From assembly GCA_029939535.1 (NCBI GenBank), contig JAOZST010000003.1, forward strand, positions 1 through 52,860: a stretch of 52,860 bases of DNA, read 5' to 3'. How positions within the stretch are numbered: position 1 is the first letter of the stretch; the number at the start of each line of letters is the position of its first letter. The translations under genes and the position numbers were made by a program. The stretch is from Desulfobacteraceae bacterium (GTDB lineage: Bacteria; Desulfobacterota; Desulfobacteria; Desulfobacterales; Desulfobacteraceae). The notes under the pieces are model-generated. The model was not told the origin of the DNA and ran no database searches. It was given only the letters and a program-made list of their open reading frames with translations. This document shows, in pieces, positions 28,761 to 47,053 of this stretch.

Positions 28761-28777
28761 GGGGAATGACGGAATAA

Positions 28778-30850: not shown

Positions 30851-31205
30851 GATTCTTGCGCTGGATGATGTTCTGGATGCAGCCAACCTGATTAAGAGGA
30901 TTCTTGAGAGAAAAGGGCATAAGGTTTTTCCTTTTACAGAAGAAGAAGAAGCCATTCGATTTCTGGAATCCAATGAGGTTGATCTGGCTATTTTGGATAT
31001 CAAGTTAAAAAAAATGAGCGGAGTTGAGGTCCTTGAAGAGTTGAAAAAAATATCTCCCTCAATTCAGGTGATCATGCTGACAGGATATCCCACCATTGAG
31101 ACAGCCAGGGAGTGTTTAAAACTTGGGGCCAGTGAATATTGTGTAAAGCCCATTGATAAGGATGAACTGGAAAATAAGGTTGCCCAGGTGCTTGGAAATT
31201 CCTGA
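30843..31205 (+). CDS. Single-domain response regulator (CheY-like receiver)
   Basis: 120 aa. DLAILDIKLKKMSG phospho-acceptor region and a conserved K in YCVKP. Overlaps the kinase stop by 8 nt. Confidence 0.9.
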   Translation: MGKILALDDVLDAANLIKRILERKGHKVFPFTEEEEAIRFLESNEVDLAILDIKLKKMSGVEVLEELKKISPSIQVIMLTGYPTIETARECLKLGASEYCVKPIDKDELENKVAQVLGNS

Positions 31206-31249
31206 CCGCTGGTATGGCTGACCGCAGTCGATTTCTTTTAAATTTTTTT

Positions 31250-32290: not shown

Positions 32291-34926
32291 CCTTCTTTTT
32301 CAATGTCCGGTTCAATGTCCGGCCTGAAATCATATCGGCCGTTCATAAAATGATCAATCATTGTTTCCATATCCTGATTTTCTTTTAGATACATATCCAT
32401 GAGTTTTGTAGTCCCCAGAAGCTGTCCGATAATTTCAAGGGTTTCTTCCATGTCCTTTAATGAACCATGCTTGAATTCAGCATCAATCAGGTCTGATTTG
32501 ACCTGGACCATAAATTTGAGCCTTGTTAAAATTCCTTTAATAAAATTAGCCCTGAGAGTTTTTCCAACAGGGTTACCGCCGCCGCCGGAAAACCTGAAAA
32601 GGATATAATTATTTTTTTTTGAAGAGGTGCAGATGGTGTCCAAAATGACAAAATGATATCCAAACCTGAAGTTTACATTTAAATACTCCTTTGACACGAC
32701 TGCATAGCTTCCAAACTGGGGTGAATCAGCAGAGATAATTCCTCCGGCCATGACGATTCGGTCATACTCTTCCCAATCAAAATGGGAGGTTTCAGACCAG
32801 GATATGCCAGGGTTTGAAAGCCCTTTCAATACCGCTTTCATGGGAAGACTGGCAATATTTTCCGGTTTTATGAACTTTTCATTTTTCTGGTGGTTGTTTT
32901 TTTTGGCATCGTTTATACCCTGGCCCACATCAAGAACATAAAAGAGCATGGGGATACCGGAGTTGAGTTGTTTTGCCCCTTTTTTCCGGCTGCCTTTTCT
33001 ATTTCCTCCTAGAAACATTTCTTTTACAGCAGTTTCATGGGTAAACCGGATAATATCATGGAGGGATCTGCATGATTCCGGTACAAAAGAGCTGTCTTCA
33101 GGATCTGTGAGTTTCAATTTTGTACAAAAATTAATTACATACTGGAGTTTGGTCATAAAGGGACTGTCTTGGAAAAAAATATCTTTTTGCCTGGAGTCTT
33201 CCTTTAGATGTTTTGTTTCTCCATCGTATACAAGGCAAGCATTGGCATCCACGGTTACCAGATTCCCCTGGACAAGATCACGAAAACCTTTTGCAATGTT
33301 TACAATGGAAGGAACCCCGAATTCCCTGGCAATGGATGCAAAATGGCTGGCACGGCTTCCAGTTTCGATAATAATGGCTTTCATTTTGTTGATTGCCGTA
33401 ACAAATTGGGGCAGGCCATGTCTTACCACAAGAACTGATCCCTGGGGAATCTGGGCTATTTGTGATAATTGCTCAAGTATGTATACTGGACCAGAACCAA
33501 TACCAGGACACACAGGCTCTCCGCCTGAACAAATTATTCTATTTTTAATATTCATTGGAATATCCGTATCCTGGGTCTGAGTTACAGTATTTTGGACACC
33601 AGGGACAGGGATATTCAAGGGCCTGGACTGAAGGATAAAAAGACTGCCGGATTGATCCTGGCACCATTCAATATCCTGGGGTTCATTAAAATATTCTTCA
33701 AGGGAAAATCCCCACCGGGCAAGGGATAGTACAGAGGGTTCATCAAGGGAAAGAATATTTTTTTGCTGTTGATTTGTATCAATGATTTTGGTCTGGCTTT
33801 CCGTCTGGCCGTCTGCCTGGCCCTTATGGGTTAAAACCATTTGCTTCAGTTTTTCTGCTGCTTTTCTGCTGACAATGGTTCCAGGCTCTTTTTTTGATAT
33901 TTTGATAAGGTCAGGAGAGACTTCCCCTTCCACCAGCAGCCCACCCTGGCCCCAGACCGAGTGGATCAATATATTGTCAGAAACAGGATCTTGAATATCC
34001 CGGGTATAGATTATCCCGGATGCTTTTGAATCGATCATTTCAAGGACCAGGACAGCCATGGGGGTTGCATCATCAAGTATGCCATGGCTGATCCTGTAAA
34101 ATAAGGCCTGGGCAGAATATTTGCTGGCAATGACCTGTTTATATCCCCGTAAAACATTCTTTTTTTCTACATTTAATATTGTTTCATACTGACCGGCAAA
34201 GGATGCTTTTCCATCCTCTTTAGCGGCGCTGCTACGGAGCGCAACCCTGAAATTGCCTTCATCATTGTTTTCAAGGCGGTAAATAGCATTATTTACTGCT
34301 ATTTCAACATCTTCGGGTATAGCGCCATTTAAGATTAATTGTTCAATTTCGAGGGCTGTTTGTTCCAAAGAGGATACGTCGCTTATATCAAGATCAGATA
34401 GCTTTTCATTAATAGGGTCTCGTAGATCATTAGCCTCCAGAAAAAAATGAAAGGCATTGGTTGTTATCACAAATCCATCGGGCGTAGGTAAGTGAAGGTC
34501 TTTATTCAAAAGGGCCAGAGCAAATGCTTTTTTGCCTGCAACGGATTCATTAAATGATGAGATCTTATCGAACTCAATGGTAAAGGGTGGTGAAAAATCA
34601 AACTCCTTTGGAGCGATCATAAATTGGATATAAAAATCAAATTTCTTAAAATAGGATTTCAAACTCCAATAGTTTGAAGGGGACATTTTTAAAAGCTCTT
34701 CAACCATATTTGACACAGAGGCGCCAAATTGCTCATAGGTTTTCACAATGGCCTGGAAATCATATTTTTTTTGATTATAATAGATATCCTCCAGGGAGGC
34801 CATGAATTCATGGGCAGCCTTGTCATGCTCCAGCAAAGCCTTAAAGGCTTCATATTTTTCCCTTAAAATTGTTCCCGGAGAAAATACCTGATAGGTCCAG
34901 TATCGGAATAAGTTTTTAATCAACAT
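32287..34926 (-). CDS. PEP-utilising enzyme family protein (ATP-grasp PPDK_N domain + swivelling phosphohistidine domain + uncharacterised N- and C-terminal domains)
   Basis: 879 aa. VALRSSAAKEDGKASFAGQYETILNV (PPDK_N nucleotide-binding domain). Swivel domain GIGSGPVYIL...IIIETGSRASHFASIAREFGVPSIV, with the catalytic His at about residue 528. The C-terminal 300 aa or so are not recognisable as a PEP/pyruvate-binding TIM barrel. Confidence 0.8.
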   Translation of the reverse strand: MLIKNLFRYWTYQVFSPGTILREKYEAFKALLEHDKAAHEFMASLEDIYYNQKKYDFQAIVKTYEQFGASVSNMVEELLKMSPSNYWSLKSYFKKFDFYIQFMIAPKEFDFSPPFTIEFDKISSFNESVAGKKAFALALLNKDLHLPTPDGFVITTNAFHFFLEANDLRDPINEKLSDLDISDVSSLEQTALEIEQLILNGAIPEDVEIAVNNAIYRLENNDEGNFRVALRSSAAKEDGKASFAGQYETILNVEKKNVLRGYKQVIASKYSAQALFYRISHGILDDATPMAVLVLEMIDSKASGIIYTRDIQDPVSDNILIHSVWGQGGLLVEGEVSPDLIKISKKEPGTIVSRKAAEKLKQMVLTHKGQADGQTESQTKIIDTNQQQKNILSLDEPSVLSLARWGFSLEEYFNEPQDIEWCQDQSGSLFILQSRPLNIPVPGVQNTVTQTQDTDIPMNIKNRIICSGGEPVCPGIGSGPVYILEQLSQIAQIPQGSVLVVRHGLPQFVTAINKMKAIIIETGSRASHFASIAREFGVPSIVNIAKGFRDLVQGNLVTVDANACLVYDGETKHLKEDSRQKDIFFQDSPFMTKLQYVINFCTKLKLTDPEDSSFVPESCRSLHDIIRFTHETAVKEMFLGGNRKGSRKKGAKQLNSGIPMLFYVLDVGQGINDAKKNNHQKNEKFIKPENIASLPMKAVLKGLSNPGISWSETSHFDWEEYDRIVMAGGIISADSPQFGSYAVVSKEYLNVNFRFGYHFVILDTICTSSKKNNYILFRFSGGGGNPVGKTLRANFIKGILTRLKFMVQVKSDLIDAEFKHGSLKDMEETLEIIGQLLGTTKLMDMYLKENQDMETMIDHFMNGRYDFRPDIEPDIEKEG

Positions 34927-35047
34927 GATGGATAATTTGTTAAGTGTTTATTGTTTGAATTCAATGACTACTCTAAGAATAGCATTGAAAACAAAAGAAT
35001 ACAAACAGGGTTTTCTAAATTTTATTGTGCAATAAAAAAAGTGCAAT

Positions 35048-35079
35048 GCAATATTTTTATTGCGCAATATTTTTATTGC
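35048..35079. promoter_or_regulatory. Two perfect tandem copies of the 16-bp palindrome GCAATA-TTTT-TATTGC (candidate activator/enhancer site)
   Basis: gcaatatttttattgc occurs at 35048-35063 and again at 35064-35079. It is embedded in a block (35031-35092) with further TGCAAT/ATTGC half-sites. Confidence 0.6.
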
Positions 35080-35276
35080 AATTTATTATTGCTATAAGTC
35101 AATCTCCTTATGTTCCAAGGCTTTCCCCGAATAATCGCATGGAATTGAATTTGATGTCGGTTTTGTTTCGGGTTTCAGTATAAATGCTGTTTTTTTAATT
35201 TTAAATAATAGTTTTTTATTTAATTCCAGATAGTTGTATTGTTACTATATTGAATTTTGGTCTGCAACAACCCTGC

Positions 35277-35292
35277 TGGCACGGTTATGGCT
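35277..35292 (+). promoter_or_regulatory. Putative sigma-54 (-24/-12) promoter
   Basis: TGGCACGGTTATGGCT has GG (35278-79) and GC (35290-91) separated by exactly 10 nt. The -24 half matches TGGCAC perfectly. The -12 half is TGGC rather than TTGC. Located 60 nt upstream of ATG 35352. A sigma-54-type activator is encoded at 42944. Confidence 0.55.
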
Positions 35293-35351
35293 GTATATAT
35301 TTTGAGCTGTTCATATAAACAGAATAATATTTGCTAAGGAGGCAATAAAGT

Positions 35352-38144
35352 ATGGATAAAACGTATATGGAATCAAGGGCAAAAAGGTATCAATTTCTTT
35401 CCACCCTGTATCGCGATGAGATTCCTCTGAAATTAATTCAAAGTATGCAGGGCGAACAATTTCTTACTGGGTTCCTTGAATCTGTAAAAGGATGTGGATT
35501 TATGGATCTAACCAGTGGTGCAGAGGCCATGGCTTCCTGTTTGAAAAATACAGACCCGGAAAAATTGTATAAAGACTTACGTTATGATTATGCAGACATT
35601 TTTCTAAACGCAGGGCCCAATCCCACATTCCCATATGAATCTGCTCACACAGGGAAAACCCCTGTGCTTATGCAAAAGCCAGTTTTAATCCTCAGAGAGT
35701 ATTTTAAAAATGCAGGTGTTCATAAAAATCCTGGCTATAAGGATCTTGATGATCATATTGCAGTTGAAATGGAATTTTTACGGTATCTTCTTGAAAATCA
35801 GAAATCTGAGATGTACATAAACTTTTTTAAAGATACCTATCTTAAATGGGTAAATTCCTTTTGTGATCAACTGACTGCTTCTGCAAAAACCGCATTCTAT
35901 CAAGGTCTTGCTCATTTTACACGGGGAGCCTTGATGTGTGAAAATATGCGGATTGATGGCTTCAGCAGGGGTGAAGAGACCACCCAGAGAATGATGGAAG
36001 CTTGTGCTGCCCTGGATCTTGATTCTGCTTATTTTACGCTGGCAGAAGGTGCTGTTGAGCAAGAGCCATTAAAGGAAATCCCCAGTCATTGTTACACTTG
36101 TGGTGCCTTGTGCGGTATGACAGCAAAAGTTAAAGACGGTATATTGACAGGTGTTTCAGGGCTTCCCGGTGATCCTAAAGGTGGTGGAAGACTTTGCCCT
36201 AAAGGTGCTGCATCTCCAAGCCATCTATATTCACCGTACCGGCTTAAAGAACCCCTCATTAAAGAGAATGGCCGTTTCCGAAAGGCAAGCTGGGAAGAGG
36301 CTCTTGACGCTGTCGCAGACGGTATTAAAAGTATAGAACCTGGAAAATTAGGATTTTTTAGAGGAAATGATTTTATCAACTGGATACATGAGGGACTCTT
36401 TGATCATCTGGGATGCCCCAAAATGACCCACAGGCCCATGTGTGACAATGCCAACCGTATGGCAAATGAGCATAACCTCAATGACAAGAGACCATGGATT
36501 AATTATGAGGAATCCGATTATATTATCCATTTTGGTATGAACGAGTTTGCTACTTCCTATGGACAGCGGAAAACCACTCAATTGAAATCTGCCCTTAAAA
36601 ACGGAGCAAAGCTGGTGGTTTTTGATCCCAGAAGATCTGATACGGCTGCTGCCGCTACAGAGTGGATTCCCGTAAAACCTGCAACTGATGGTGCTGTTGC
36701 ATTGGCAATGTGCTATGTTATTATAAAAAATGAGCTCTATGACAAAGAATTTGTCAAAAACTGGACACATGGTTTTGATGAACTTAAGAACAGGGTGCTT
36801 GGTACGGAAGATGGAATTGCCAGAACCCCTGAATGGGCCGCAGAAATCAGTGATGTACCTGCAGATACCATAGAGCGGATTGCCATGGAATTTGCCATGG
36901 CTGAAAAGAAAGGGGTTATGTCCTGGACCGGAGTGGCACAAGTTCCCAATGGTATGTACGGGACTGCTGCATTACAAGCTTTAAATGGGCTATGCGGTAC
37001 ATTCGATGCTCCTGGAGGACCCTCTCTTCCCTTTAAAAGAAAGTTGAAATCTCCATGGGGAGAGGGACAGGAAAAACCTCCCAAGGGATCTGCTCCCAAA
37101 ATTCATAAATATACCATGTGGTCTGGTTGGGGCCCGGCCAATACGCTGTCTGCTGTAGAAGCAGGCAAACTTAAAGGTATGATCCTCTATTTCGGCGATC
37201 CAGTCCTTTCCTGTGGTAACCAGGAAGATTCTATAAAAGCCATAGAAAAAATGGAATTTAAGGCCGCCATTGAAGCGTATATGTGTAATAGTGCTCTATT
37301 GTGTGATGTTATTCTTCCTGATACCTCATGGCTGGAACAGAGTCAGATAAAATCTGACTGGCTTTACGATGCTTTTATTGCCTACTATGCTGAGATTGTT
37401 GAGCCCATGTATAACACCATGCCTGTGTGGAAAATAACAGTGGAGCTGGCGAAAAGACTAAATTTAGGCAAATATTTCCCATGGGACAATATTGAAGATG
37501 CATTGCGCAATCAGATGGAGGGAACGCCGTGGTCTTTTGATGAACTTAAGGCAAAAGGATTTATTATTACAGATAAGGCAGAATATTTTAAATATAAAAA
37601 ATGGGGAAGTATTAACCCACCGGAAGGATATGGCAGCTCAGGAAAGAGTAAAACAGGAAAATATAACTTTGTGAACCCTGTTGCCCAGGAAAAGGGGATA
37701 GATCCTCTGCCTGATTTTAAAGAACCTGACAAAGAGTTGCAGCCTGACAAAGAATATCCGTTTGTTTTTGGAAATTTTCGGCTGTTTGGGCATGAACATT
37801 CTTCAACTTTTAATAATTTTCAGCTCATGAAAACAAATGAAAAAAATCTTTTGTGGATCAATAAAATCGATGCTAGAGAACTTGGCATAGCTGAAGGTGA
37901 CAAGGTCAGGCTGCAATCCCCATGGGGCAGTGTGGAAACGGTTGCAAGTCCAACATGGTCAATTATGAAGGGAGTTCTTGGCAGCCCAGGAGGTTTTGGA
38001 CATGTTCGTGGAATTGAAGGTGATCCCAAATTTCAGGTAATGGGCGGGATCAACACGCCTAGTCTCATGAAATCAGATGCTTCTGAAAAGGATGGCGGAA
38101 CCACCATTCTAAAATATATAAAAACCAAAGTAGAAAAAATATAA
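35352..38144 (+). CDS. Molybdopterin (bis-MGD) oxidoreductase catalytic subunit with N-terminal TorD/DmsD-like chaperone domain
   Basis: Residues 1 to about 225 carry the TorD-family pattern (RYDYADIFLNAGPNPTFPYESAHTG...YFKNAGVHKNPGYKDLDDHIAVEMEFLRYLLE). Next comes the 4Fe-4S motif HCYTCGALCG...RLCPKG (36087-36197), then molybdopterin and C-terminal MGD-binding domains (FVFGNFRLFGHEHSST..., VRLQSPWGSVE). No RR Tat motif. Confidence 0.85.
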   Translation: MDKTYMESRAKRYQFLSTLYRDEIPLKLIQSMQGEQFLTGFLESVKGCGFMDLTSGAEAMASCLKNTDPEKLYKDLRYDYADIFLNAGPNPTFPYESAHTGKTPVLMQKPVLILREYFKNAGVHKNPGYKDLDDHIAVEMEFLRYLLENQKSEMYINFFKDTYLKWVNSFCDQLTASAKTAFYQGLAHFTRGALMCENMRIDGFSRGEETTQRMMEACAALDLDSAYFTLAEGAVEQEPLKEIPSHCYTCGALCGMTAKVKDGILTGVSGLPGDPKGGGRLCPKGAASPSHLYSPYRLKEPLIKENGRFRKASWEEALDAVADGIKSIEPGKLGFFRGNDFINWIHEGLFDHLGCPKMTHRPMCDNANRMANEHNLNDKRPWINYEESDYIIHFGMNEFATSYGQRKTTQLKSALKNGAKLVVFDPRRSDTAAAATEWIPVKPATDGAVALAMCYVIIKNELYDKEFVKNWTHGFDELKNRVLGTEDGIARTPEWAAEISDVPADTIERIAMEFAMAEKKGVMSWTGVAQVPNGMYGTAALQALNGLCGTFDAPGGPSLPFKRKLKSPWGEGQEKPPKGSAPKIHKYTMWSGWGPANTLSAVEAGKLKGMILYFGDPVLSCGNQEDSIKAIEKMEFKAAIEAYMCNSALLCDVILPDTSWLEQSQIKSDWLYDAFIAYYAEIVEPMYNTMPVWKITVELAKRLNLGKYFPWDNIEDALRNQMEGTPWSFDELKAKGFIITDKAEYFKYKKWGSINPPEGYGSSGKSKTGKYNFVNPVAQEKGIDPLPDFKEPDKELQPDKEYPFVFGNFRLFGHEHSSTFNNFQLMKTNEKNLLWINKIDARELGIAEGDKVRLQSPWGSVETVASPTWSIMKGVLGSPGGFGHVRGIEGDPKFQVMGGINTPSLMKSDASEKDGGTTILKYIKTKVEKI

Positions 38145-38148
38145 AAAA

Positions 38149-38532
38149 ATGACCATTATAGCCTTAAAATCGATTTTTGTTGGTGTTGGCGGATCAATAA
38201 TCCTTGCCGTTTTTTGTTCAACATTTATTGCTGCGGATAAAATTTTGTTCATCATGCCGCTTTTTATTGCTTTTAACGGTGCAATGATGGGCTATCGTCT
38301 GGTGGAAGTGCTGAAAAATTTGATTATAAATATTTCTCTTTTTTCTTTTGTACTGGGAACCGGAGGAGGCGCGCTTACTTTTGTAGCCTTGAATTTTGTC
38401 ATAATTTTTGCCGGACCCTTTATGGGGAACGCCTTTTCACTCAATCTAACCGATTTGTTTGTTTATATGGCTGTATCAGGAATCACAAGTTATCTGGGGG
38501 CAAAACTGGCTGTCAGATATTTTAATTTATAG
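38149..38532 (+). CDS. Small hypothetical integral membrane protein (about 4 TM helices)
   Basis: 127-aa hydrophobic ORF starting 4 nt after the oxidoreductase stop. Confidence 0.55.
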   Translation: MTIIALKSIFVGVGGSIILAVFCSTFIAADKILFIMPLFIAFNGAMMGYRLVEVLKNLIINISLFSFVLGTGGGALTFVALNFVIIFAGPFMGNAFSLNLTDLFVYMAVSGITSYLGAKLAVRYFNL

Positions 38533-38567
38533 TTTTTTTGTGTGTTATTTTAAAAAAGGAGAATCAA

Positions 38568-40259
38568 ATGAGGAAAATTGTTACGTATTTTATTATGCTG
38601 GCGCTGGCTTTGCTTGTCTCAGCGTCAGGCTCTTTTGCCAACAGTATGTCTGCATCCACCTATAAAGCAGGGGATGTGGTTGAAATAACCGGTAAGATTG
38701 CCCCGGGCCAGGATTTGTATATTGCCATTGCCCAGCAGGAAATGTTTGCACCCAAAGACACCAACGGTGCCTTTGAAATAAAAAGATTAAAAAAGGATGG
38801 GAAAAAGAAAGGATTTGATCAGGATACCGCTATCCCGCCCCTTTATTATATGATTACCAACGTCCCTGAAAAGTTTGGTAAAGTAGATAAGAAAAAATTC
38901 GGCGGCCCTTCTGTTCTATTGAAAAAAGGACAAGGGATTTACAGCACCACCATGTTCTATCTGAAAAAGAAATTAAGCGATGTGGATGCAACAGCCCGGG
39001 GTATGCTCGGACCTATCAAATCAGATGAACAATGGAATTTATTCAAATATGCCAATGAGAGTGGCTATGGTATCAATACCATTGTTAAAGAAGGAAATAG
39101 AAAAGGGAAAGTGGTTATTTTTTCACGATCTGTCATCGGTGACCAGTCAAGTGGCAATTACTGGGACAAGGGCACTTCCGTAAAACTGGATAAAGCAACT
39201 GGTGAATTTACTGCCTCCTTTAAATCTTTCAGGCATACTCCGCCCAACACAAAATTTGATGTGTATGCCAATGGCGCTAAAATTGGAAATTATACTGTAG
39301 AAAAAAACGGGTTCTGGCTTTCCAAAGGGTTCAGGTATATGAATCCACTATGGATTGTTATCGGTGCCATTCTGGTTGGAACCTATTTCTCCATGATCGG
39401 TGCTGCCGGTGGTATGCTCATGGCAGCCTTCCAGGTATTGGTTGTCAACACAATGGGGCCAGTGGGTATCAATGCTGCCAATGTATTAAAGCCCTCTAAT
39501 ATTGCCCTGACCCTGTTCTCCCCCCTGGGATCTTTCTGGCGATATGCCAAGATTGAAAAGCGCGTTGCCTGGCCAGTGGGGATCTCCTTTGGTGTGGGTA
39601 TTTTTATCGGGTCCATCTGGCTGGGTAAATATGTATCAGCAGTTCTGCCCATGAAAGCCTATAAGGAATGGCTGGCCATTCTGGTGGTTATAATGGGAAT
39701 CAAGACCCTGATGGAAATGAGACCTGCAGCCATGGCAAAAAGAAAAAATATCAAGGCCATGACCCAGAAATTTAATAAAGAAGTTGCTGCGGCCAAGGCT
39801 GAAGGACGTTCAGCACAGATGGGCAGTATTGAGCCGGTAAAAACAGGGCTGATGGATTATAGATTTAAATTCTGGGGTGAAGAATTTACCATCAACCCCT
39901 TGCTTTTTGCCTTCCTGGGAATTTTTATTGGTATCGTATCCAGATCCTTTGGTATTGGCGGTGGATTCCTCCTGGTACCTGCAATGACCACTTTGGCAGC
40001 TCTTCCCATGTATGTGGCAGTTCCCATATCCTTGATCGGCACCTGTTTTTCCAGTATTGGTTCCTTTGTCGGATATCTCATGGCAGGATACCTGCCTGAC
40101 ATGACCCTTGGTATAGCCATTATTATAGGCGGGTTTGCCGGTGGTATGCTGGGCAGCCGGGCCCAGAAAATGTTCTCGGAAATGACCCTGAAAGTTATTC
40201 TTGCAATTACTTTGTTCTTCCTGTTTTTCAGGTTCTTTAAGATTGAAATCTGGATATAA
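38568..40259 (+). CDS. Signal peptide + periplasmic domain of about 250 aa fused to a TauE/SafE (TSUP) family anion permease
   Basis: AGGAG RBS before ATG 38568. Signal MRKIVTYFIMLALALLVSASGSFA. The C-terminal half is polytopic, with the family motif FGIGGGFLLVPAM and a charged insert between the two half-repeats. Confidence 0.75.
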   Translation: MRKIVTYFIMLALALLVSASGSFANSMSASTYKAGDVVEITGKIAPGQDLYIAIAQQEMFAPKDTNGAFEIKRLKKDGKKKGFDQDTAIPPLYYMITNVPEKFGKVDKKKFGGPSVLLKKGQGIYSTTMFYLKKKLSDVDATARGMLGPIKSDEQWNLFKYANESGYGINTIVKEGNRKGKVVIFSRSVIGDQSSGNYWDKGTSVKLDKATGEFTASFKSFRHTPPNTKFDVYANGAKIGNYTVEKNGFWLSKGFRYMNPLWIVIGAILVGTYFSMIGAAGGMLMAAFQVLVVNTMGPVGINAANVLKPSNIALTLFSPLGSFWRYAKIEKRVAWPVGISFGVGIFIGSIWLGKYVSAVLPMKAYKEWLAILVVIMGIKTLMEMRPAAMAKRKNIKAMTQKFNKEVAAAKAEGRSAQMGSIEPVKTGLMDYRFKFWGEEFTINPLLFAFLGIFIGIVSRSFGIGGGFLLVPAMTTLAALPMYVAVPISLIGTCFSSIGSFVGYLMAGYLPDMTLGIAIIIGGFAGGMLGSRAQKMFSEMTLKVILAITLFFLFFRFFKIEIWI

Positions 40260-40285
40260 TTCATATAAAAGGTAAATTGAAATAT

Positions 40286-40334
40286 AAAACCCGTGTGTTG
40301 AATTTTGGTTATTGCTAAGTCAGCCACGGGTTTT
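40286..40334 (+). terminator. Possible terminator or processing hairpin after the permease gene
   Basis: aaaacccgtg (40286-40295) pairs perfectly with cacgggtttt (40325-40334) and is followed by atttta. The 29-nt loop is large for an intrinsic terminator. Confidence 0.35.
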
Positions 40335-40351
40335 ATTTTAAGGGAAATTTT

Positions 40352-40939
40352 ATGGACGGTTTTTTAGACAGGGTATGGGAAGTTATTTATTCCTTTTTGA
40401 ACAATACAATTATGTTTCTGGATGCCCTATTTTCTCCTCTTGAGGTATTTGGACCGGGAGTTGTTATTTTTTTTCTTGCGTTTCTATCGATTTGCACAAC
40501 AAGAATCATTTCAAAATTTTATGTGACCAAAAGATATATACTCCTTGAAAAGGAATTTCACCACTGGCAGGGCGTTAGAAAAGAAGCACTGAATCATCCT
40601 GATGGGGAAAAAGGCAAGGCCCTGGCAAAAAATATTGACCAGGCTGAATTAAATAAAGCCTATTATGATTATTTCTTTGAAGGGATGTTAAAGCATTTTA
40701 TCGGTAATGTTCTTCCTGTATTGCTGATGGTTTCCTATGTAACCTCGGTGTATACCCCTGAAGCCCTTTTAGAACGATTCGGAGAAAAATGGGTATTTTC
40801 CCTTACTTTGGGATCATCTTTTCATGTGGATGTAAGTTCTTTGTTCTGGTTCGTCCTTTGCTTGTTGCCATCATTTTTATTGATTGCAGTTTTAAAAAAG
40901 GTCTATAAAATACGATATGCCAAAAAAATATTGGTTTAA
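40352..40939 (+). CDS. Hypothetical membrane protein (3-4 TM helices with a charged helical insert)
   Basis: 195-aa ORF. TM - charged segment (LEKEFHHWQGVRKEALNHPDGEKGKALAKNIDQAELNKAY) - TM - TM layout. No confident family. Confidence 0.5.
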   Translation: MDGFLDRVWEVIYSFLNNTIMFLDALFSPLEVFGPGVVIFFLAFLSICTTRIISKFYVTKRYILLEKEFHHWQGVRKEALNHPDGEKGKALAKNIDQAELNKAYYDYFFEGMLKHFIGNVLPVLLMVSYVTSVYTPEALLERFGEKWVFSLTLGSSFHVDVSSLFWFVLCLLPSFLLIAVLKKVYKIRYAKKILV

Positions 40940-41423
40940 TCCGGGGTCATTTTTACGATTCATACCTGTATTCGCAATTGCCAGTTTGATCCTGCTGCCC
41001 CTGGATGTTTATGCCATCCAGATTCATACTAGTTCAGAAGGAATTATTACCCACCAGGTGGGTCATCTTTTTTTTCTTTTTTCCATGGTGGTTCTTATTT
41101 TTACCATCACAGGCAAGGGGCTGAACAAACAAAAAGGCTGGCGCATGATTCAATATTCAGCATTCTTTTTTGTCCTCTGGAATATTGATGCGATTATTGC
41201 TCATTTTTTAGATAACCAGATTTGTGCCATAAAAATAGAAAATATCTCTTTGACCCGGATAAAACTGGTCAGCCAGAATGATTCTTCTGTTCTTCCCTGG
41301 CTGTATTATATCCTAAAGCTGGATCATCTGTTAAGCGTTCCAGCCATGCTGTTTCTTTTCAAAGGACTTTCAAATCTTGTGGATGACCAGAAAAAGATAA
41401 TAAAGGAAAAGGCCAGTCAATGA
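40917..41423 (+). CDS. Hypothetical membrane protein (about 4 TM helices)
   Basis: 168-aa hydrophobic ORF. Overlaps the previous ORF by 23 nt and the following kinase gene by 4 nt (ATGA). Confidence 0.5.
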   Translation: MPKKYWFNPGSFLRFIPVFAIASLILLPLDVYAIQIHTSSEGIITHQVGHLFFLFSMVVLIFTITGKGLNKQKGWRMIQYSAFFFVLWNIDAIIAHFLDNQICAIKIENISLTRIKLVSQNDSSVLPWLYYILKLDHLLSVPAMLFLFKGLSNLVDDQKKIIKEKASQ

Positions 41424-42922
41424 TTGTCTCGTTTATTCCCATACTGGCGGTAGATGTTCTAGGATCTGTGGCCATGGTGGTGATTTCCCTTTTATCCCTT
41501 TACAAAGCAAAAATATTAAGGGGAATGGATCCGGATAATGCTATTTTTCTTTATCTTTTATGGATCAGTGTGGGATTGACGATTTTTTCGGTATCAAGAG
41601 CCTTTGGACATATTTTAAAACAATTTTTAGTGCTCACTTCAAATACAGACACCTGGCACGCCATCAGTGCTTATTCAGGCAGTGTCAACACTGTATCTTT
41701 CATGCTGGTTGGCTTGATCACTCTGTTTTTTAACCAGAATTGGAATATTAATGAAAAAATTTTTTCCGGCAGAAAAAAACTGGAGGAAACCCATATTAAA
41801 CTCATGGATCTGAACCAGACCCTTGAAAATAAAGTTGTTGAGAGGACGGAAAGACTCACGAGCAGCGAGCATAAATGCCGCAGGATATTTGAGCAGTCCC
41901 TGGACACAATTCTTGTTACGGACGCTGAGTTCAGGATAATGGAGACCAATCCGGCTGGTATAGCACTCATGGGATATGACCGGGAAGAGATGATTGAAAA
42001 AAAAATGATCCTGGGGGGCTTTTTTTTGGATTCGTCTGAATGGGAAAAACTCAGCGAAAAAATAAAATTTAAAGAATATATTTTAAATGAAGAAGCTGAA
42101 TTTATAAGGCCGGACAATGAATCCATACTGGTTTTGATTACCGGTGGTCTTGATTATGGCGCCTTTGGATGTGCAAAAACCTATCACTTTATCATCAAAA
42201 ACGTGAATGACAAAAGACAGATGGAACAGCAGATTGCCCAGGCAGATAAACTTGCTGCCCTGGGTGAACTTTCCGCGGGCGTGGCCCATGAAATAAATAA
42301 TCCTCTGGGAATTATTCTTGGCTATACACAGCTTTTATTAAAACAGGAGCAGGAACCTGAGAACAAAGATGATTTAAAAATTATAGAAAAACATGTGCAG
42401 AATTGCAAAACAGTTGTATCTGACCTTCTTTCCTTTTCACGGAAAGGGTCAACTGAGATGAGTATCGTTGATATTAACAAGGTGGTAGACGGTGTGGTTA
42501 AATTTTTATCCAACCATTCTGATTTCAGGAATATTGAAATGACCTTGAATCCCCATAAAGGGGACAGGCTTAATATTCTCGGCAATGAACAGGAATTATC
42601 CCAGGTTATCATAAACCTTGTTATCAATGCCTGTCATGCTGTTGACCGTAAGGGTAATATTGATATTGTCACGGAAAAAACAGATCAGGATAAGATCTTC
42701 ATTAGGGTGAAGGATAACGGCAAAGGAGTGGAAACAAAGAATTTAACCAGGATTTTTGATCCGTTTTTCACCACAAAGCCGGTTGGACAGGGTACTGGCC
42801 TTGGGCTTTCCGTGGGATATGGCATTATTAAACGTCACCAGGGAGATATCAGTGTAAAAAGCAGCAAAGGCAAAGGCACTGTTTTTACCATCAGTCTGTC
42901 TGCCGTTAAATCAAAAGCTTAA
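41420..42922 (+). CDS. Membrane-bound sensor histidine kinase (multi-TM N-terminus, PAS, HisKA, HATPase_c)
   Basis: H-box GVAHEINNPLG, N-box INLVINACHA, G-boxes DNGKGVETKN and GTGLGLSVG. PAS-like segment after a coiled coil. Confidence 0.9.
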   Translation: MIVSFIPILAVDVLGSVAMVVISLLSLYKAKILRGMDPDNAIFLYLLWISVGLTIFSVSRAFGHILKQFLVLTSNTDTWHAISAYSGSVNTVSFMLVGLITLFFNQNWNINEKIFSGRKKLEETHIKLMDLNQTLENKVVERTERLTSSEHKCRRIFEQSLDTILVTDAEFRIMETNPAGIALMGYDREEMIEKKMILGGFFLDSSEWEKLSEKIKFKEYILNEEAEFIRPDNESILVLITGGLDYGAFGCAKTYHFIIKNVNDKRQMEQQIAQADKLAALGELSAGVAHEINNPLGIILGYTQLLLKQEQEPENKDDLKIIEKHVQNCKTVVSDLLSFSRKGSTEMSIVDINKVVDGVVKFLSNHSDFRNIEMTLNPHKGDRLNILGNEQELSQVIINLVINACHAVDRKGNIDIVTEKTDQDKIFIRVKDNGKGVETKNLTRIFDPFFTTKPVGQGTGLGLSVGYGIIKRHQGDISVKSSKGKGTVFTISLSAVKSKA

Positions 42923-42943
42923 TTGTGATCAGGAAAGAAAAGA

Positions 42944-44341
42944 ATGAAGACAAAAATACTTGCAGTTGACGATGAAAAGGATATGACAAGGCTTTTGCAG
43001 AGAACCCTGGAGTCTGAAATCAATTGCAGGGTTTCCATGGCATTTTCAGCAAAAATGGCCTTGGGCATTCTTGAACAGGAATCCTTTGACCTGGTTATTT
43101 GTGATATCAGAATGCCGGGTATGGATGGTTTTGAACTGCTCGGGCATATAAGGGATAGTTATCCTGATTTGACTGTGGTAATGTTGACAGCTTTCGGAAA
43201 TATCGAGTCTGCTGTAAAAGCCATTAAAAAAGGGGCCTATGATTTCATTCCCAAGCCATTTGAGCAGGCTGAAATTATTTTTAAAATTCAAAAAGCCCTT
43301 GAAAGAAGTCTGCTGCTCAAAGAAAATAAACGCCTTTTAAAGGAAAAGACAAAGATCAGTCCTTCTCAATTGATTGGGAAGAGTGAACCCATGCAAAGGG
43401 TGTTTGATCAGATCAATCTGGTTGCATCAAGTGATGTCACCGTGTTGATAACAGGGGAATCAGGAACAGGGAAAGATCTGACTGCAAGATCCATCCACGC
43501 CCTGAGTCCGAGAAAAGATAAGTTTTTTATTCCGGTCAACTGCCCGACCATTCCGGAAAATATTCTGGAAAGTGAATTATTCGGATATAAAAAAGGTGCT
43601 TTCACCAACGCCAACATGGACAGGGACGGACTTTTCCAGGAGGCTGACAAAGGGACTATTTTCCTGGACGAAATAGGAGATATAGGACCCAGTATTCAGA
43701 CAAAGTTATTAAGGGTTCTCCAGGAAAAAGAGATAAAACCCCTTGGGGACACTAAAGTAAAAAAGGTGGATGTACGAATTATCGCATCCACCAATAGAAA
43801 CCTTAAGCAGAAGATTGCCAACCATGAATTCAGGGAAGATTTTTTTTACCGGCTTAACGTGCTGCCCATTGAGCTGCCGCCCTTACGAAATCGCATAACA
43901 GATATTCCCATTCTTGCCGAGCACCTTGTGGCAAAGCATTGTAAAAAGTTGAAAAAAGCATTGAAAATAATATCCGAAGAGGTGATGGATCTTTTGATGA
44001 AACAGCCTTGGCCAGGCAATGTAAGGGAACTTGAAAATGTTCTTGTTCAGGGAATTCTATATTCAAAAGAGAGTATAATTGATCTGTCAGATATTCCTTT
44101 ACAGGAAGCAGACTCAAAAAATTATTGTTTAAAAGGGTTTGATTGCAACAGCATTTCAGTCCTGCCCTATAAAGAAGCAAAAGAAAAATTACTCCAGGAA
44201 TTTAATTACGATTATATCGGTGCCAAACTTTCCATGACCAAGGGCAATATTACCCAGGCAGCCAAGCAATGCAGTATGGATCGCCAGGCCCTGCAGCAGA
44301 TCATGAAGCGGTATGGCATTGATCCTGCTCATTTTAGATAA
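42944..44341 (+). CDS. Sigma-54-dependent response regulator (REC + AAA+ + Fis-type HTH; NtrC family)
   Basis: Receiver DLVICDIRMPGMDG. Walker A GESGTGKDL. GAFTGA-loop variant GAFTNA. Walker B TIFLDEIGD. C-terminal HTH GNITQAAKQCSMDRQALQQIMKRYGI. Confidence 0.9.
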   Translation: MKTKILAVDDEKDMTRLLQRTLESEINCRVSMAFSAKMALGILEQESFDLVICDIRMPGMDGFELLGHIRDSYPDLTVVMLTAFGNIESAVKAIKKGAYDFIPKPFEQAEIIFKIQKALERSLLLKENKRLLKEKTKISPSQLIGKSEPMQRVFDQINLVASSDVTVLITGESGTGKDLTARSIHALSPRKDKFFIPVNCPTIPENILESELFGYKKGAFTNANMDRDGLFQEADKGTIFLDEIGDIGPSIQTKLLRVLQEKEIKPLGDTKVKKVDVRIIASTNRNLKQKIANHEFREDFFYRLNVLPIELPPLRNRITDIPILAEHLVAKHCKKLKKALKIISEEVMDLLMKQPWPGNVRELENVLVQGILYSKESIIDLSDIPLQEADSKNYCLKGFDCNSISVLPYKEAKEKLLQEFNYDYIGAKLSMTKGNITQAAKQCSMDRQALQQIMKRYGIDPAHFR

Positions 44342-45521
44342 TCAATTTCCATTTTCCACCAATTAAGTTTGCCAATGTCCCTTTGGGCCAGATCAATTAC
44401 CTGAAGTTCCCAGGCCCCTGCAAAGGTTTTGTCTTTTAAGGAAGACAAAACCTGGCCTGAATCAAATGAGGTACGGATATCATGGCCGCTTCCTCCTTCC
44501 CGGTCAACAAGGGTGATAATATCTCCTGAAGGTGATGCAATCTGTATTCTCAGGTCCTGAACATAGGTGTGGGTGATGTCCAGGCTTATTTTGATTTTTT
44601 TAATGATGCCTGGTGTAAAAAATTTAATTCGGTCTGATATCCCGTTGGGATCATTGTCAGGAATCAGCCTGGAGGGCCTGGATTCCTTTATAATGGTTTC
44701 TCCTCTCCCTTCGGGTTCCAGAGGATTGCCTGTCTCAAAAAAGATAACTTCTTTAGGTTCGGTTATATTGTAGATTTTCAGACCCGATTCCATGCCTCCC
44801 CACGCCCGTGAAGAGGGAATGGTATTCCGGGAAAGGATAAGACCTTCCCCGTTTTTGAACAAATCTGATTCATCTCCCTGGTTTCGGTTGTTTTCAAGGT
44901 TCCGTGCTCCATCCGCCTGGATCAGGGCGCATTGATAATGTTTGTCCCCAGTTCCTCCCTGCCATTCATTGGATCCAAAGATATCACAATCCTGTTGCTG
45001 GATATGGTTTTATAATATTCTTTAACCGAGCAGGAATTACCATGGGCAGTAAAATTGTCGCCATTGAGCAGTGAATCCACATGCTCCTTGGAAATCCGGG
45101 TGGTAACATCCTTGAAATTGACCAATATGGTCAAACCCCTTACCTTGCTTTCCTGGCTCAGCTGGGTCCCAGGCAGTAACCCATTGTTCCTGCCCAACGT
45201 TGCTGAAACACCCGGAGGTGGTGACTTTTTTGGTCTCATCATCTGAAATTTTTCTTCAAATTTTTTGTTGCGCACCTTTTTGTCTTCCTGGAGATGGCGT
45301 GGAATTCCTCCTGGTATGGGCTTATATGAGGGTATACCGCTGGAAATAAGATTTCCTTTTGCCGGGATGGCAAAGCAGTATATATCTTTATCTGTATCAT
45401 AAATTACTGTATACCCATCCATTGTTTCGTAACGGGCATAAAATTCGTCTCCATAACTCTCAGTTGAACCTCTTCCCCGTTTTTCTGGGGAAATGTTCTT
45501 GTTTTGCCAAGTATCAAACAC
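44329..45521 (-). pseudogene. M6 (InhA-like) metalloprotease remnant with C-terminal proprotein-convertase P-domain; catalytic core missing, two frames
   Basis: The N-terminal ORF (45521-44922) ends in ...RGLTILVNFKDV...SVKEYYKTISSNR. A second frame opens at about 45010 and runs to 44329. It reads ...CDIFGSNEWQGGTGDKHYQCALIQADGARNLENNRNQGDESDLF...TIPSSRAWGGMESGLKIYNI, followed by a P-domain (ISLDITHTYVQDLRIQIASPSGD...AGAWELQVIDLAQRDIGKLNWWKMEI). No HExxH occurs anywhere. Confidence 0.45.
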
Positions 45522-45568
45522 ATGATAGGCTTCCTTTTTATTTTAGAATTCCTTTTGTTAAATTTTTT

Positions 45569-47053
45569 TTAATTCCAGCCTGATACTTCAAATAGGATTT
45601 CGGCTGTCATATTTACCGGGCGTTTTTGAGCAAATTGAATCCGGGACCTGGCTATATTGTTTTTATCTGATTTGAATTTCAGGGGCTTTGTTGCATTGAA
45701 GCTATTGGATCCCCATCCATATCTCACCTTGAAACTTTTATCTCCTTCCACGGATGTTTCTATGATCAACCTGTCATCAAAGACAGCCTGGCCTTCATAA
45801 TATTTGTCAGGCAGGAATGTAAAATCCTTATGGTAAAGGGGGAGAATCCTGAAATGGATGGAAAATCCAAGGGATCGGCTTCTTTTATTGAGCCGGCCGG
45901 TTTTTAATAGAAAACTTGTAAACAGATGTGTTTTTTTGTTTACAAGGGTATCAGAGGATCGAAAGGATGATGAAAAAGTTTCTTTTGTTCTCTTATTTAA
46001 GGGGATGGGAAGACCCCGGATGGAAACAATGCTTTCAATGTCATAGGTGGCTGAAAGATTTTTGTTTTTTCCAGGGATCTCAATGGATAGCTTTTCAAGG
46101 CTTACCTTAACCCTGGTGTCGCCGAAAAAGAACCTTTCAAGGTTTCGGTAGCCACTTTCAGAATTGACGATTCCATAGGCACCTGAATGACTCCGGAATG
46201 TGTATGCCCTTGCAGAATTCCGTACATAGGCATTTTCAATCCGGACCAGACCATCACTTTTGGGCCCAACTACTTTCTTGGCCATCCCATAATCCTGGGA
46301 GTTGGTACCCACCAGGCAGAATACCCGATCAGGCGGGAAACAATTATTCAGGGAGTGCAAAGGCTTATTTTTATCCTTTTCTTTGTCCAGGGAAAGTATT
46401 TTTCGCATTCGTTTTTCACCAAAAACATCGGCATTATTGATGGCCAGAAAATCCCTGAGCCCTTCAAGCCAGCCAAATCCTTTTCTAAATTCTATTCCAC
46501 CGTGGGGAGTGGCATAGGTAAATAATTTGTCCACTCCTTTTTTTGTCCAGTCCCTTGATTTTTTCCCTTCCAGATCCGGAATATCTCTGTTTTGAAGATA
46601 ACAGCGGCAGACAAGGCCACCCATGGAGTGGGCCACCAGATAAACCCTGAAATCATTGTTATCTTCCTGTCCTGTGGCCTTTTTAACATGGAGAATAAAT
46701 TGTCTGAGTTTTTCAGCGTGGAATTCTATTTCCTTGCGTTCTCCAGTGCCCAGATCTTTTGAAACCACATCATAATACCTGAAAATCCAGATGGATCTCG
46801 GACTGACCGGTCCCAGGGGCATGATTTGGCCGTCATGGAAAGCATCCTCATAAAGATGATCCTTCATAAGCCGGATAAGAGGAGATTCAAAGACATAGGG
46901 CTCTACGGAACCCGAATAGGTCTGCCGATATTTTGTTGTTCCCAGGTTAAATCCCATATACGGGGTGGCAACCGTATCCTCAACTGCGTTTTGAGTTCCG
47001 GCATACCCCCGGACATAAATGATTGGATAATACGGTGGTTTCAGCATTGGCAA
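45569..47053 (-). CDS. Alpha/beta-hydrolase (lipase/PGAP1-like) with an uncharacterised C-terminal domain of about 200 aa
   Basis: 494 aa. Nucleophile elbow VAHSMGG preceded by YPIIYVRGYAG, then TPHGG and SDGLV segments consistent with a Ser-Asp-His fold. No signal peptide. Confidence 0.7.
   Translation of the reverse strand: MPMLKPPYYPIIYVRGYAGTQNAVEDTVATPYMGFNLGTTKYRQTYSGSVEPYVFESPLIRLMKDHLYEDAFHDGQIMPLGPVSPRSIWIFRYYDVVSKDLGTGERKEIEFHAEKLRQFILHVKKATGQEDNNDFRVYLVAHSMGGLVCRCYLQNRDIPDLEGKKSRDWTKKGVDKLFTYATPHGGIEFRKGFGWLEGLRDFLAINNADVFGEKRMRKILSLDKEKDKNKPLHSLNNCFPPDRVFCLVGTNSQDYGMAKKVVGPKSDGLVRIENAYVRNSARAYTFRSHSGAYGIVNSESGYRNLERFFFGDTRVKVSLEKLSIEIPGKNKNLSATYDIESIVSIRGLPIPLNKRTKETFSSSFRSSDTLVNKKTHLFTSFLLKTGRLNKRSRSLGFSIHFRILPLYHKDFTFLPDKYYEGQAVFDDRLIIETSVEGDKSFKVRYGWGSNSFNATKPLKFKSDKNNIARSRIQFAQKRPVNMTAEILFEVSGWN

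Follow-up and report, generated by a model that had tools for sequence, protein, structure and literature searches.

Among the described systems closest to the locus analysed here are PsrABC and PhsABC (Thermus thermophilus PsrA, PDB entry 2vpw; Salmonella PhsABC). The locus lies in a 52.9-kb stretch of DNA from Desulfobacteraceae bacterium (GCA_029939535.1, JAOZST010000003.1, forward strand, positions 1-52,860; hereafter the window) and encodes a molybdenum (Mo) or tungsten (W) enzyme with an N-terminal TorD chaperone domain (the TorD-Mo enzyme), a TauE-type permease and two-component regulators. It is an uncharacterised, modular, sigma-54-controlled cluster in which a fixed permease and sensor core is combined with exchangeable cytoplasmic Mo enzymes. 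We found no description of the enzyme or the cluster in the literature on TorD-enzyme fusions, DUF8269, cable bacteria, the "co-occurring with TauE" protein or the Desulfovibrio sigma-54 regulome. The window enzyme has the same Mo/W-bis(pyranopterin guanine dinucleotide) (bisPGD) fold, FS0 cluster site and cysteine ligand as PsrA and PhsA. Unlike them, it has no Tat signal, no PsrB/PhsB-type iron-sulfur (FeS) subunit and no NrfD-type anchor, and is predicted to be cytoplasmic with a fused chaperone.

Cytoplasmic PhsAB-like enzymes have been proposed to cleave thiosulfate in the disproportionators Dissulfuribacter (DITHS69_2027/2028) and Desulfolithobacter (PhsA-1/-2) (PMC13490349, PMC9751629). 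As with the window enzyme, these are signal-less members of the PsrA/PhsA lineage from Desulfobacterota and have no membrane subunit. By architecture, a sister enzyme found in related loci, such as that of Desulfobacula phenolica (L086), is of this PhsAB-like kind, whereas the window enzyme shares only ~31% identity with the L086-type enzyme, lacks an FeS subunit and carries the TorD fusion. The MOLY cluster, which has been put forward as a marker of sulfur disproportionation (PMC12998232, PMC9676032), comprises MolyA, MolyB and MolyC, a separate TorD/DmsD chaperone, and likewise combines a PsrA/Phs-like Mo enzyme with a TorD-family chaperone in the same phyla. MolyAB, however, is predicted to be Tat-exported and extracellular and has an FeS subunit and a free chaperone, in contrast to the fused, probably cytoplasmic window enzyme without a B subunit. 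Compared with the TorD/NarJ-type chaperone family (PMC4464133), which includes TorD, DmsD and NarJ, the TorD domain of the window is not free-standing and its enzyme has no Tat leader to bind.

Like the window enzyme, acetylene hydratase from Pelobacter acetylenicus (2e7z), the third-best solved match, is a monomeric W/Mo-bisPGD protein of the cytoplasm that has one [4Fe-4S] cluster and a cysteine ligand. The residue after its second FS0 cysteine (CQSCD), which we take to be the catalytic Asp13, is replaced by an invariant glycine (Gly251, CYTCG) in the window enzyme; moreover, this match is much weaker than that to PsrA, and the genomic context points to redox chemistry. NarJ-NarG, NarB/NasA and FdhF are cytoplasmic bisPGD enzymes that need a TorD/NarJ-type chaperone or act as single FS0 subunits with soluble donors. 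In the window, the chaperone is instead covalently fused to the enzyme N-terminus, an arrangement that we did not find described in the literature searched. Finally, in AioXSR and ArrXSR, a PhnD-family binding protein, a histidine kinase and a sigma-54-dependent activator precede an arsenic Mo-enzyme operon. The window locus also has a PhnD-family protein, related to ArrX, a kinase and an activator, with the differences that the binding protein and its Cache kinase are followed by a receiver-only protein, while the activator is paired with a second (PAS) kinase that has a His-rich membrane partner. The analysis showed an anion-type TauE permease and an oxyanion-type binding protein at the locus.

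The TorD-fused molybdoenzyme

The enzyme gene (35352-38144, + strand, 930 aa; ORF1) was classified with Pfam and NCBIfam models. Nitrate_red_del/TorD (PF02613) matched residues 57-172 (70.3 bits, cut-off 22.2), the TorD and DmsD NCBIfam models matched below their own cut-offs, and the TorD structure 1n1c was found with E = 5.5e-9. Molybdop_Fe4S4 (PF04879) matched residues 241-294 (40.5 bits), and the matches to Molybdopterin (PF00384, 107 bits, cut-off 24) and Molydop_binding (PF01568, 49.7 bits, cut-off 26.8) place the protein in the DMSO reductase superfamily. The FS0 [4Fe-4S] motif Cx2Cx3Cx27C consists of C247, C250, C254 and C282 and is invariant in 12 homologues; Cys364, which lines up with PsrA Cys173 throughout the family, is the predicted metal ligand. 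No variation was seen at any of the cofactor-binding and FS0 residues, and conservation is strong along the full length of the protein. A total of 414 homologues were detected at E <= 1e-20, and the best 120 of these (57-100% identity) have the TorD fusion throughout, apart from a few truncated ones. Scanning one genome per species located the family in Desulfobacterales, Desulfohalobium retbaense, Desulfosarcina widdelii, Dethiosulfatarculus, Desulfomonile, Desulfocapsa, Desulforhopalus, cable bacteria (Electrothrix) and Archaeoglobi. A profile search with the TorD domain alone against 1.84 billion representatives returned mostly fragments and free-standing TorD-like proteins at 30-44% identity.

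The closest solved structure was Thermus PsrA (E = 2e-70), with acetylene hydratase, F420- and other formate dehydrogenases and ArrA well behind. An earlier reading of this DNA made from its letters (the sequence-only reading) had named a catalytic domain inside a well-characterised clade of known substrate as part of what would count against it. The domain belongs to no characterised equivalog: the best NCBIfam model, PhsA, gave 280 bits and did not reach its cut-off of 694, and the ArrA model gave 130 bits. Three active-site motifs are family-specific, namely THRxMCDN around the cysteine ligand, RGND, which stands where PsrA has GHGT (with His145), and SWTG(V/L)AQ, which stands where PsrA has PTRHN (with Arg332). 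Because PsrA and PhsA are the best matches and the cysteine ligand is kept while the active-site surroundings are family-specific, the TorD-Mo enzyme is best classified as a distinct, probably cytoplasmic branch of the PsrA/PhsA lineage with its chaperone fused in cis.

We searched residues 1-240 of ORF1 for a Tat signal and detected neither an RRxFLK motif nor an h-region; the N-terminus is a 235-aa TorD domain plus linker. Likewise, no ferredoxin-like, NrfD-type, four-cluster FeS (B) or cytochrome partner is encoded anywhere in the 52.9-kb window. The sequence-only reading had claimed that the enzyme lacks both export signal and redox partners and so does not form a standard respiratory Psr/Phs/Dms/Ttr module, and on all of these points it proved right, the enzyme being TorD-fused and, by prediction, cytoplasmic.

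The permease core and its exchangeable enzymes

The enzyme gene is followed, 4 nt past its stop codon, by a gene for a 127-aa membrane protein with four predicted helices (38149-38532, +), which matched no Pfam or NCBIfam family. Next is the permease (38568-40259, +, 563 aa). Its open reading frame (ORF) opens at 38538 with TTG, and the ATG at 38568, which follows AAGGAGA, is most likely the true start. The protein consists of a signal peptide, a periplasmic DUF8269 domain (~235-250 aa) and a TauE/TSUP domain of 4+4 transmembrane segments with a conserved charged central loop. Pfam TauE (PF01925) matched residues 274-564 (104.5 bits, cut-off 32.6), and DUF8269 (PF26800) is assigned on the N-terminal ~250 aa of the homologues of the permease. 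Identity is 77-92% among the best 120 homologues listed, which come from several genera, Desulfobacteraceae included. A Foldseek search of the PDB with an AlphaFold2 model of the DUF8269 domain (pLDDT 78, pTM 0.79) gave weak Ig-like beta-sandwich matches only (best E = 0.14). A 195-aa membrane protein, weakly EMC3/TMCO1 (DUF106)-like (PF01956, 28.1 bits), is encoded further downstream (40352-40939, +).

To place these genes in context, ~165 loci were compared (85 centred on the Mo enzyme and 82 on the DUF8269-TauE fusion). Counts given for TauE loci refer to the 21 with at least 7 kb upstream and at least 5 kb downstream, and counts given for TorD-Mo loci to the 28 with full flanks; neighbours were called by phmmer cut-offs. 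The 195-aa gene was present in 21/21 TauE loci and is thus an obligate companion of the TauE fusion, while a 168-aa gene, a PAS kinase and an activator were all present in 19/21. A homologue of the 127-aa protein (123/127 aa) was encoded directly upstream of the fusion in 18 of the 21, regardless of enzyme type. A cytoplasmic Mo enzyme of any kind was found in 16/21, and this was a signal-less PhsA-like sister enzyme in 14, a TorD-fused enzyme in two and both in none; the other five had no Mo catalytic gene of either type. These comparisons point to a constant core made up of the 127-aa protein, the DUF8269-TauE fusion, the 195-aa and 168-aa proteins, the PAS kinase and the NtrC-type activator. 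The sequence-only reading had proposed a conserved trio of Mo enzyme, 127-aa protein and TauE fusion. This did not hold, since the 127-aa protein goes with the permease module and the Mo enzyme is a swappable front end. We had also considered the 127-aa protein as a membrane anchor for the Mo enzyme, which was ruled out because the protein travels with TauE and not with the enzyme.

The exchange is evident in close relatives. Their permease and regulators share 82-89% identity with those of the window, compared with only 29-31% for the enzyme behind the promoter. The exchanged enzyme of Desulfobacula phenolica (L086) occupies the same chromosomal position, with the same genes for a TRAP transporter downstream. 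Cassettes have clearly been exchanged here behind a regulatory region that stays fixed. Other loci have no redox genes at all before the permease module (L109, L110 and L112) or have kept FeS and GltD-like genes with no Mo catalytic gene nearby (L087, L105 and L141, including Desulfospira joergensenii). We also noted that, in the window, genes for a 177-aa proprotein-convertase P-domain protein, a 199-aa protein and a 494-aa DUF676/PGAP1-like esterase (44329-47053, -) lie between the activator and TRAP genes; as the TRAP genes directly follow the activator in D. phenolica, these look like an insertion.

The sister enzyme is a signal-less relative of PhsA (~608 bits on the PhsA model, cut-off 694; 181 bits on the ArrA model). 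Its operon also encodes a DmsB-like FeS subunit, a GltD-like NAD(P)H iron-sulfur flavoprotein that resembles YgfK (353 bits), a 71-aa protein, a CBS protein and a Fer2/Fer4 protein. The 71-aa protein was examined as a candidate TusA-like protein, which was ruled out as it has no CPxP motif. In L091 (13956-17689), L092 and L095, the genes for the PhsA-like enzyme and FeS subunit are followed by NuoE-, NuoF- and NuoG-N-terminal-like genes. Such a module belongs to a type known from electron-bifurcating or -confurcating hydrogenases and formate dehydrogenases, and input of this sort serves very low-potential acceptors. The TorD-Mo enzyme was shown to have the features expected of a cytoplasmic protein, and the sister enzyme of the related loci those of a redox-type enzyme.

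Across the 85 Mo-centred loci, the recurring neighbours were TauE, a ~200-aa membrane protein after TauE, the 168-aa gene before the PAS kinase, sigma-54 activators, receiver-only genes, a phosphoenolpyruvate (PEP)-synthase-like gene followed by a DSP-type phosphatase gene, and a PhnD-like gene before a Cache kinase gene. The TorD-Mo gene adjoins TauE in Desulfobacteraceae, Desulfohalobiaceae, Desulfocapsaceae and Archaeoglobi, so the pairing of Mo enzyme and TauE permease emphasised by the sequence-only reading does recur from Desulfobacterota to Archaeoglobi. In the archaeal version, the genes beside TorD-Mo encode a short TauE, a LysR regulator and a membrane protein of ~170 aa. The hosts of the cluster are sulfur-cycling Desulfobacterota and Archaeoglobi only. 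Its cultured carriers include Desulfohalobium retbaense DSM 5692 (TorD type, enzyme ACV69718), Desulfobacula phenolica (PhsAB type) and Desulfospira joergensenii, which has the permease-regulator module along with FeS and GltD-like genes. In single loci, the TorD-Mo gene was divergent from genes for a Cache kinase, a receiver, a receiver-FNT fusion and a member of the formate/nitrite/hydrosulfide-channel family (L004, 5005-9428), or was followed by rhodanese and multihaem cytochrome genes (L005); both are further hints of anion or sulfur chemistry. In a Desulfocapsa-type locus (L069), the TorD-Mo gene is followed by a gene (12844-14499) for a GAF-GAF-PAS-HisKA protein that has no ATPase domain and cannot autophosphorylate alone.

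Promoter elements, sensors and upstream genes

Upstream of the Mo gene, we located an exact GG-N10-GC sigma-54 promoter element of the -24/-12 type, TGGCACGGTTATGGCT (35277-35292, +), 60 nt before the ATG. Matches of this kind were not above chance over the whole window (6 found compared with 3.8 +/- 1.8 expected), and we accept TGGCACGGTTATGGCT as a real promoter because of its position and its conservation in orthologous loci. Further upstream (35023-35092), nested inverted repeats of 23, 17 and 11 nt, GCAATAAAAAAA...TTTTTATTGC, form an enhancer that is the presumed binding site of the activator. The motif GCAATAAAAAAAATGCAGTGCAATnTTTTTATTGCGCA recurs in 15 related loci at a distance of ~170-250 nt before the -24/-12 element, whichever gene comes next. 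In most related loci, the -24/-12 element heads the first gene of the operon, which can be TorD-Mo, PhsA-like, Fer4, GltD-like, 123/127-aa or TauE; where redox and permease operons are divergent, there is an element before each. In Desulfocapsaceae, it stands before the 168-aa gene, the first gene of the operon that holds the TorD-Mo gene. No -24/-12 promoter of this kind was found for the PEP-synthase-like gene. The recurrence of both promoter element and enhancer motif across related loci is strong comparative evidence for one sigma-54 regulon, which would be driven by the cluster's own activator. Activator gene, enhancer palindrome and sigma-54 promoter were shown to make up one conserved regulatory unit, placed before the permease module and a swappable enzyme.

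The -24/-12 search returned two other matches of note. One, at 40847 inside the 195-aa gene, was considered as an internal promoter and dismissed as a probable chance match. The other, a second perfect match (TGGCACACCTATTGCT, 2471-2486, -), lies 51 nt upstream of a gene for a GGDEF diguanylate cyclase (1344-2420).

Between the permease and regulator genes, a stem-loop with a U-run (about 40277-40341, +; -31.5 kcal/mol, z = -4.5, with 0/200 shuffles folding as well) looks like an intrinsic terminator or attenuator. An Rfam scan of the locus detected no Moco riboswitch and no other RNA element. Beyond the 195-aa gene, and overlapping it by 23 nt, is the gene for the 168-aa His-rich membrane protein (40917-41423, +), which has no family match and in which H36, E40, H45, Q46, H49, H96, D135 and H136 are invariant among 67 homologues. 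This residue set suggests a metal- or haem-binding co-sensor. The next gene overlaps by 4 nt and encodes a 500-aa multi-transmembrane histidine kinase with Pfam PAS, HisKA and HATPase_c domains behind a hydrophobic N-terminus (41420-42922, +). The 168-aa gene was immediately upstream of the PAS kinase gene in 19/21 TauE loci and 11/28 TorD-Mo loci, and its product is the probable, translationally coupled co-sensor of this kinase. The last gene encodes a 465-aa NtrC-type sigma-54 response regulator (42944-44341, +) with REC (106 bits), Sigma54_activat (232 bits), AAA_lid_14 and HTH_8 (17 bits, weak) domains, a GAFTNA loop and a Walker A motif.

In describing this region, the sequence-only reading was largely accurate. 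The seven ORFs are all on the + strand, as it stated; the order of Mo enzyme, 127-aa protein, permease, hairpin, 195-aa protein, 168-aa protein, kinase and activator is as it gave it; its palindromes, -24/-12 element and hairpin were all recovered; and its domain calls for the TorD-Mo enzyme, TauE permease, PAS kinase and NtrC-type activator agree with Pfam. Its proposal of sigma-54 and two-component control gains support from the conservation of promoter and enhancer site across many loci. It had set the locus at 35031-44341. The contents stand, but the limits do not, as the co-conserved genes at 27840-34926 belong to the locus too, which should start near 27840.

The first of these upstream genes encodes a PhnD-family periplasmic oxyanion-binding protein (27840-28760, +; Pfam Phosphonate-bd, 175 bits). 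Among solved structures it is closest to PtxB and HtxB (phosphite) and ArrX (arsenate), and it also matched a "putative selenate" binding-protein model and, weakly, the TtrS sensor domain. It is the likely sensor partner of the adjoining sCache_3_2-HAMP-PAS histidine kinase (28778-30850, +; Pfam), which adjoins a PhnD-like gene also in L005, L018, L022, L089, L104, L109, L110, L112 and L143. A single-domain receiver follows (30843-31205, +; Pfam Response_reg, 91 bits); in many other loci, a receiver-only gene is directly 5´ of the TorD-Mo gene. Directly upstream of the PhnD-like gene is a Mem_trans auxin-efflux-carrier permease gene (26805-27722). A Mem_trans-family gene also lies ~4 kb from TauE in Desulfohalobium retbaense (L001, 927-1844), which may be coincidence.

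Divergent from the Mo operon are two - strand genes. One encodes a PEP-synthase-like "X, water dikinase" (32287-34926; Pfam PPDK_N and PEP-utilizers) with an ATP-grasp domain, a swivel domain in which the histidine is kept and a 300-aa C-terminal domain. PDB sequence matches were confined to residues 111-577, with none beyond 577, and a model of the C-terminal domain (575-879, pLDDT 73) gave no significant fold match (best E = 0.02); this domain is not the PEP/pyruvate TIM barrel. The other encodes a DSP/PTP-fold phosphatase (Cys-X5-Arg) with a C-terminal CxxCxxCC metal-binding domain (31250-32290; Pfam Tc-R-P, DSPc and weak CxxCxxCC), whose PDB relatives are DSP/PTP enzymes and which is always paired with the dikinase-like gene. 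The dikinase is a neighbour in 9/21 TauE loci, together with the phosphatase, and in 11/28 TorD-Mo loci. By neighbour clustering, the PhnD-like gene, Cache kinase, receiver, dikinase and phosphatase are co-conserved with the cluster. Elsewhere in the window, an MTTB-family (trimethylamine methyltransferase-like) gene lies beside genes for an Asp/Glu-racemase-like protein and an RND efflux pump (10104-12337, -); this neighbourhood may serve quaternary-amine demethylation and is unrelated to the Mo-permease cluster.

Candidate substrate and reaction

The reading that we place first, at somewhat short of even chances, is that the cluster imports an inorganic sulfur anion (most likely thiosulfate) under inducible control and that this anion is reduced in the cytoplasm. 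The likeliest reaction would be reductive cleavage of thiosulfate, though a related polythionate or polysulfide is also conceivable. Thiosulfate leads because the sister enzyme is nearly a PhsA, its NADH/ferredoxin-type electron input fits the very low potential of this cleavage (the thiosulfate/sulfite plus sulfide couple is at -402 mV, as quoted in PMC13490349) and proteins of similar description rise in Dissulfuribacter thermophilus. Also in favour of a sulfur anion are the recurring association of Mo enzyme, permease and regulators, the shared promoter and enhancer, the PsrA match of the window enzyme with its aligned cysteine ligand, and the oxyanion-type relatives and weak TtrS match of the binding protein. 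When its proteome during thiosulfate disproportionation was compared with that on H2/sulfite, the log2 changes on thiosulfate were +1.56 for a TauE protein, +1.79 for its "co-occurring transmembrane protein", +3.40 for the adjacent "PEP synthase" and +2.45 and +3.51 for a cytoplasmic PhsAB-like enzyme (PMC13490349). The first three proteins are the products of DITHS69_1988-1990 (UniProt A0A1B9F8F1, A0A1B9F8H6 and A0A1B9F8M2).

If so, the PhnD-like protein and the Cache kinase would together detect the anion outside the cell, and the His-rich 168-aa protein and the PAS kinase would detect it within or at the membrane. The phosphorylated activator would bind the palindrome ~200 nt upstream and open the sigma-54 promoter, leading to transcription of the genes for the Mo enzyme, 127-aa protein and permease, with the hairpin limiting readthrough into the regulator genes. 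The permease complex could then import the anion or export the sulfite product. The fused TorD domain would aid Mo/W-bisPGD insertion in cis, as no Tat export step calls for a separate chaperone. The catalytic domain, with its FS0 cluster and Cys364 ligand, would reduce the substrate with electrons from a small soluble donor, since no partner subunit is encoded in the locus; a soluble ferredoxin is the simplest guess.

Several observations weigh against this assignment. The Dissulfuribacter data are correlative, and the homology of those proteins to the window genes is not confirmed by sequence. The TorD-fused family is, so far, known from sequence alone, the window has no gene for an electron donor, and the direction of TauE transport is not readable from sequence. 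With only 280 bits on the PhsA model, the substrate of the TorD-Mo enzyme may differ from that of PhsA or PsrA, and the residues that we take to line the PsrA active site are not kept, His145 aligning with Gly338 and Arg332 with Gly/Thr. Furthermore, 7/28 TorD-Mo loci, those of cable bacteria among them, have no TauE or regulator neighbour, though by neighbour clustering one of the seven (L024) has a kinase and a receiver gene beside the Mo gene. Lastly, both enzymes occur in one operon in the Mo-centred loci L027 (44-10698) and L030 (9477-20474), in the order [REC][TorD-Mo][168-aa][kinase][PhsA-like][Fer4][GltD-like][REC], where REC is a receiver. This shows that neither enzyme simply substitutes for the other, and each may catalyse a different step.

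Given the different active site and this co-occurrence with the PhsA-like enzyme, the TorD-fused enzyme may act on a related but different compound or in another step. A bolder version, which we consider improbable, is that it catalyses a cytoplasmic sulfur-anion reaction that today has no assigned gene, forming a previously unrecognised pathway with DUF8269-TauE. It may then be the trithionate/thiosulfate reductase of the old "trithionate pathway" or carry out a ferredoxin-driven S-S cleavage, and the dikinase and Cys-X5-Arg phosphatase may provide ATP-dependent activation of the anion or form a new kinase/phosphatase signalling module.

It is about equally doubtful that the anion contains no sulfur, with selenite or selenate, arsenate or arsenite, tellurite or phosphite being sensed by the PhnD-like protein, moved by TauE and reduced by the Mo enzyme in detoxification or respiration. 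This would fit the relatives of the PhnD-like protein (PtxB, HtxB, ArrX and the "putative selenate" model), the AioXSR/ArrXSR-like design of binding protein, kinase and sigma-54 activator before a Mo enzyme, the YgfK-like subunit of the sister enzyme and a TorD-Mo active site unlike that of PsrA. The ArrA model, however, scores far below PhsA for both enzymes, NuoEF-type low-potential input is unneeded for the high-potential Se and As couples, and occurrence in sulfur-cycling hosts only, along with the high identity of the permease among the homologues listed, fits a core function better than niche resistance. Less likely still, the substrate is a small organic molecule. It could be an organosulfonate, with TauE exporting the sulfite from it, or an aromatic or other compound, and the dikinase would first phosphorylate it, as phenylphosphate synthase does with phenol. 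Characterised TauE/SafE/TsaS relatives act in sulfonate metabolism. These roles, the co-conserved PEP-synthase-like dikinase and phosphatase, and the TRAP transporter found downstream both in the window and in Desulfobacula phenolica would agree with an organic substrate. Yet no carbon-catabolic gene is conserved in the cluster by neighbour clustering, the TRAP genes are on the opposite strand and kept only in close relatives, the C-terminal domain of the dikinase fits no known substrate-binding fold, and the Mo-TauE pair is found also in chemolithoautotrophic disproportionators and Archaeoglobi.

Two further explanations would assign the Mo protein a role other than reduction, and we give little credence to either. 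The sequence-only reading had left the conversion as redox or hydratase-like, and a non-redox hydratase- or hydrolase-type cleavage akin to that of acetylene hydratase would explain the absence of electron-transfer partners from the window. Acetylene hydratase is indeed among the closest solved relatives (E = 3e-42), and the active-site motifs are distinct, with Asp-Asn after the cysteine ligand. PsrA is nonetheless by far the better match, the acetylene-hydratase Asp corresponds to an invariant Gly, and monomeric ferredoxin-dependent members of the superfamily exist, such as assimilatory NarB. Because the sister version in the same regulon carries a full electron-input chain of FeS, GltD-like and NuoEF-like subunits, we favour the redox half of the earlier proposal over the hydratase half. 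It is just as far-fetched, in our view, that the Mo protein is mainly a signalling component that senses redox state or substrate for the surrounding two-component systems. In many loci the TorD-Mo gene has signalling genes on all sides. The frequent position of a receiver-only gene directly before it could be read this way, as could the Desulfocapsaceae order [activator][168-aa][kinase][REC][TorD-Mo][GAF-GAF-PAS-HisKA protein without ATPase domain]. Against it, the cofactor-binding and FS0 residues do not vary and the whole length of the protein is strongly conserved, the Mo gene is first behind the regulated promoter in the window, as is typical of a target, and in archaea only the LysR regulator and TauE are alongside the Mo gene.

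Uptake and cytoplasmic reduction of a sulfur anion is the reading that we place first. For sulfate reducers and disproportionators, the route by which thiosulfate enters the cell and the cytoplasmic enzyme that cleaves it are open questions, and recent proteomic papers name "cytoplasmic PhsAB-like" enzymes without a transporter, regulator or genetic frame. The locus gives a testable frame of this kind, comprising a dedicated permease family accompanied by two small proteins, a pair of sensing systems, a defined enhancer and promoter, and two alternative cytoplasmic Mo enzymes, one of which is an undescribed chaperone-enzyme fusion. As the cluster is present in cultured strains, the hypothesis is directly testable. 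If a previously unrecognised pathway of the TorD-Mo enzyme and DUF8269-TauE did prove true, its distribution would be wide, taking in marine sulfate reducers, disproportionators, cable bacteria and Archaeoglobi.

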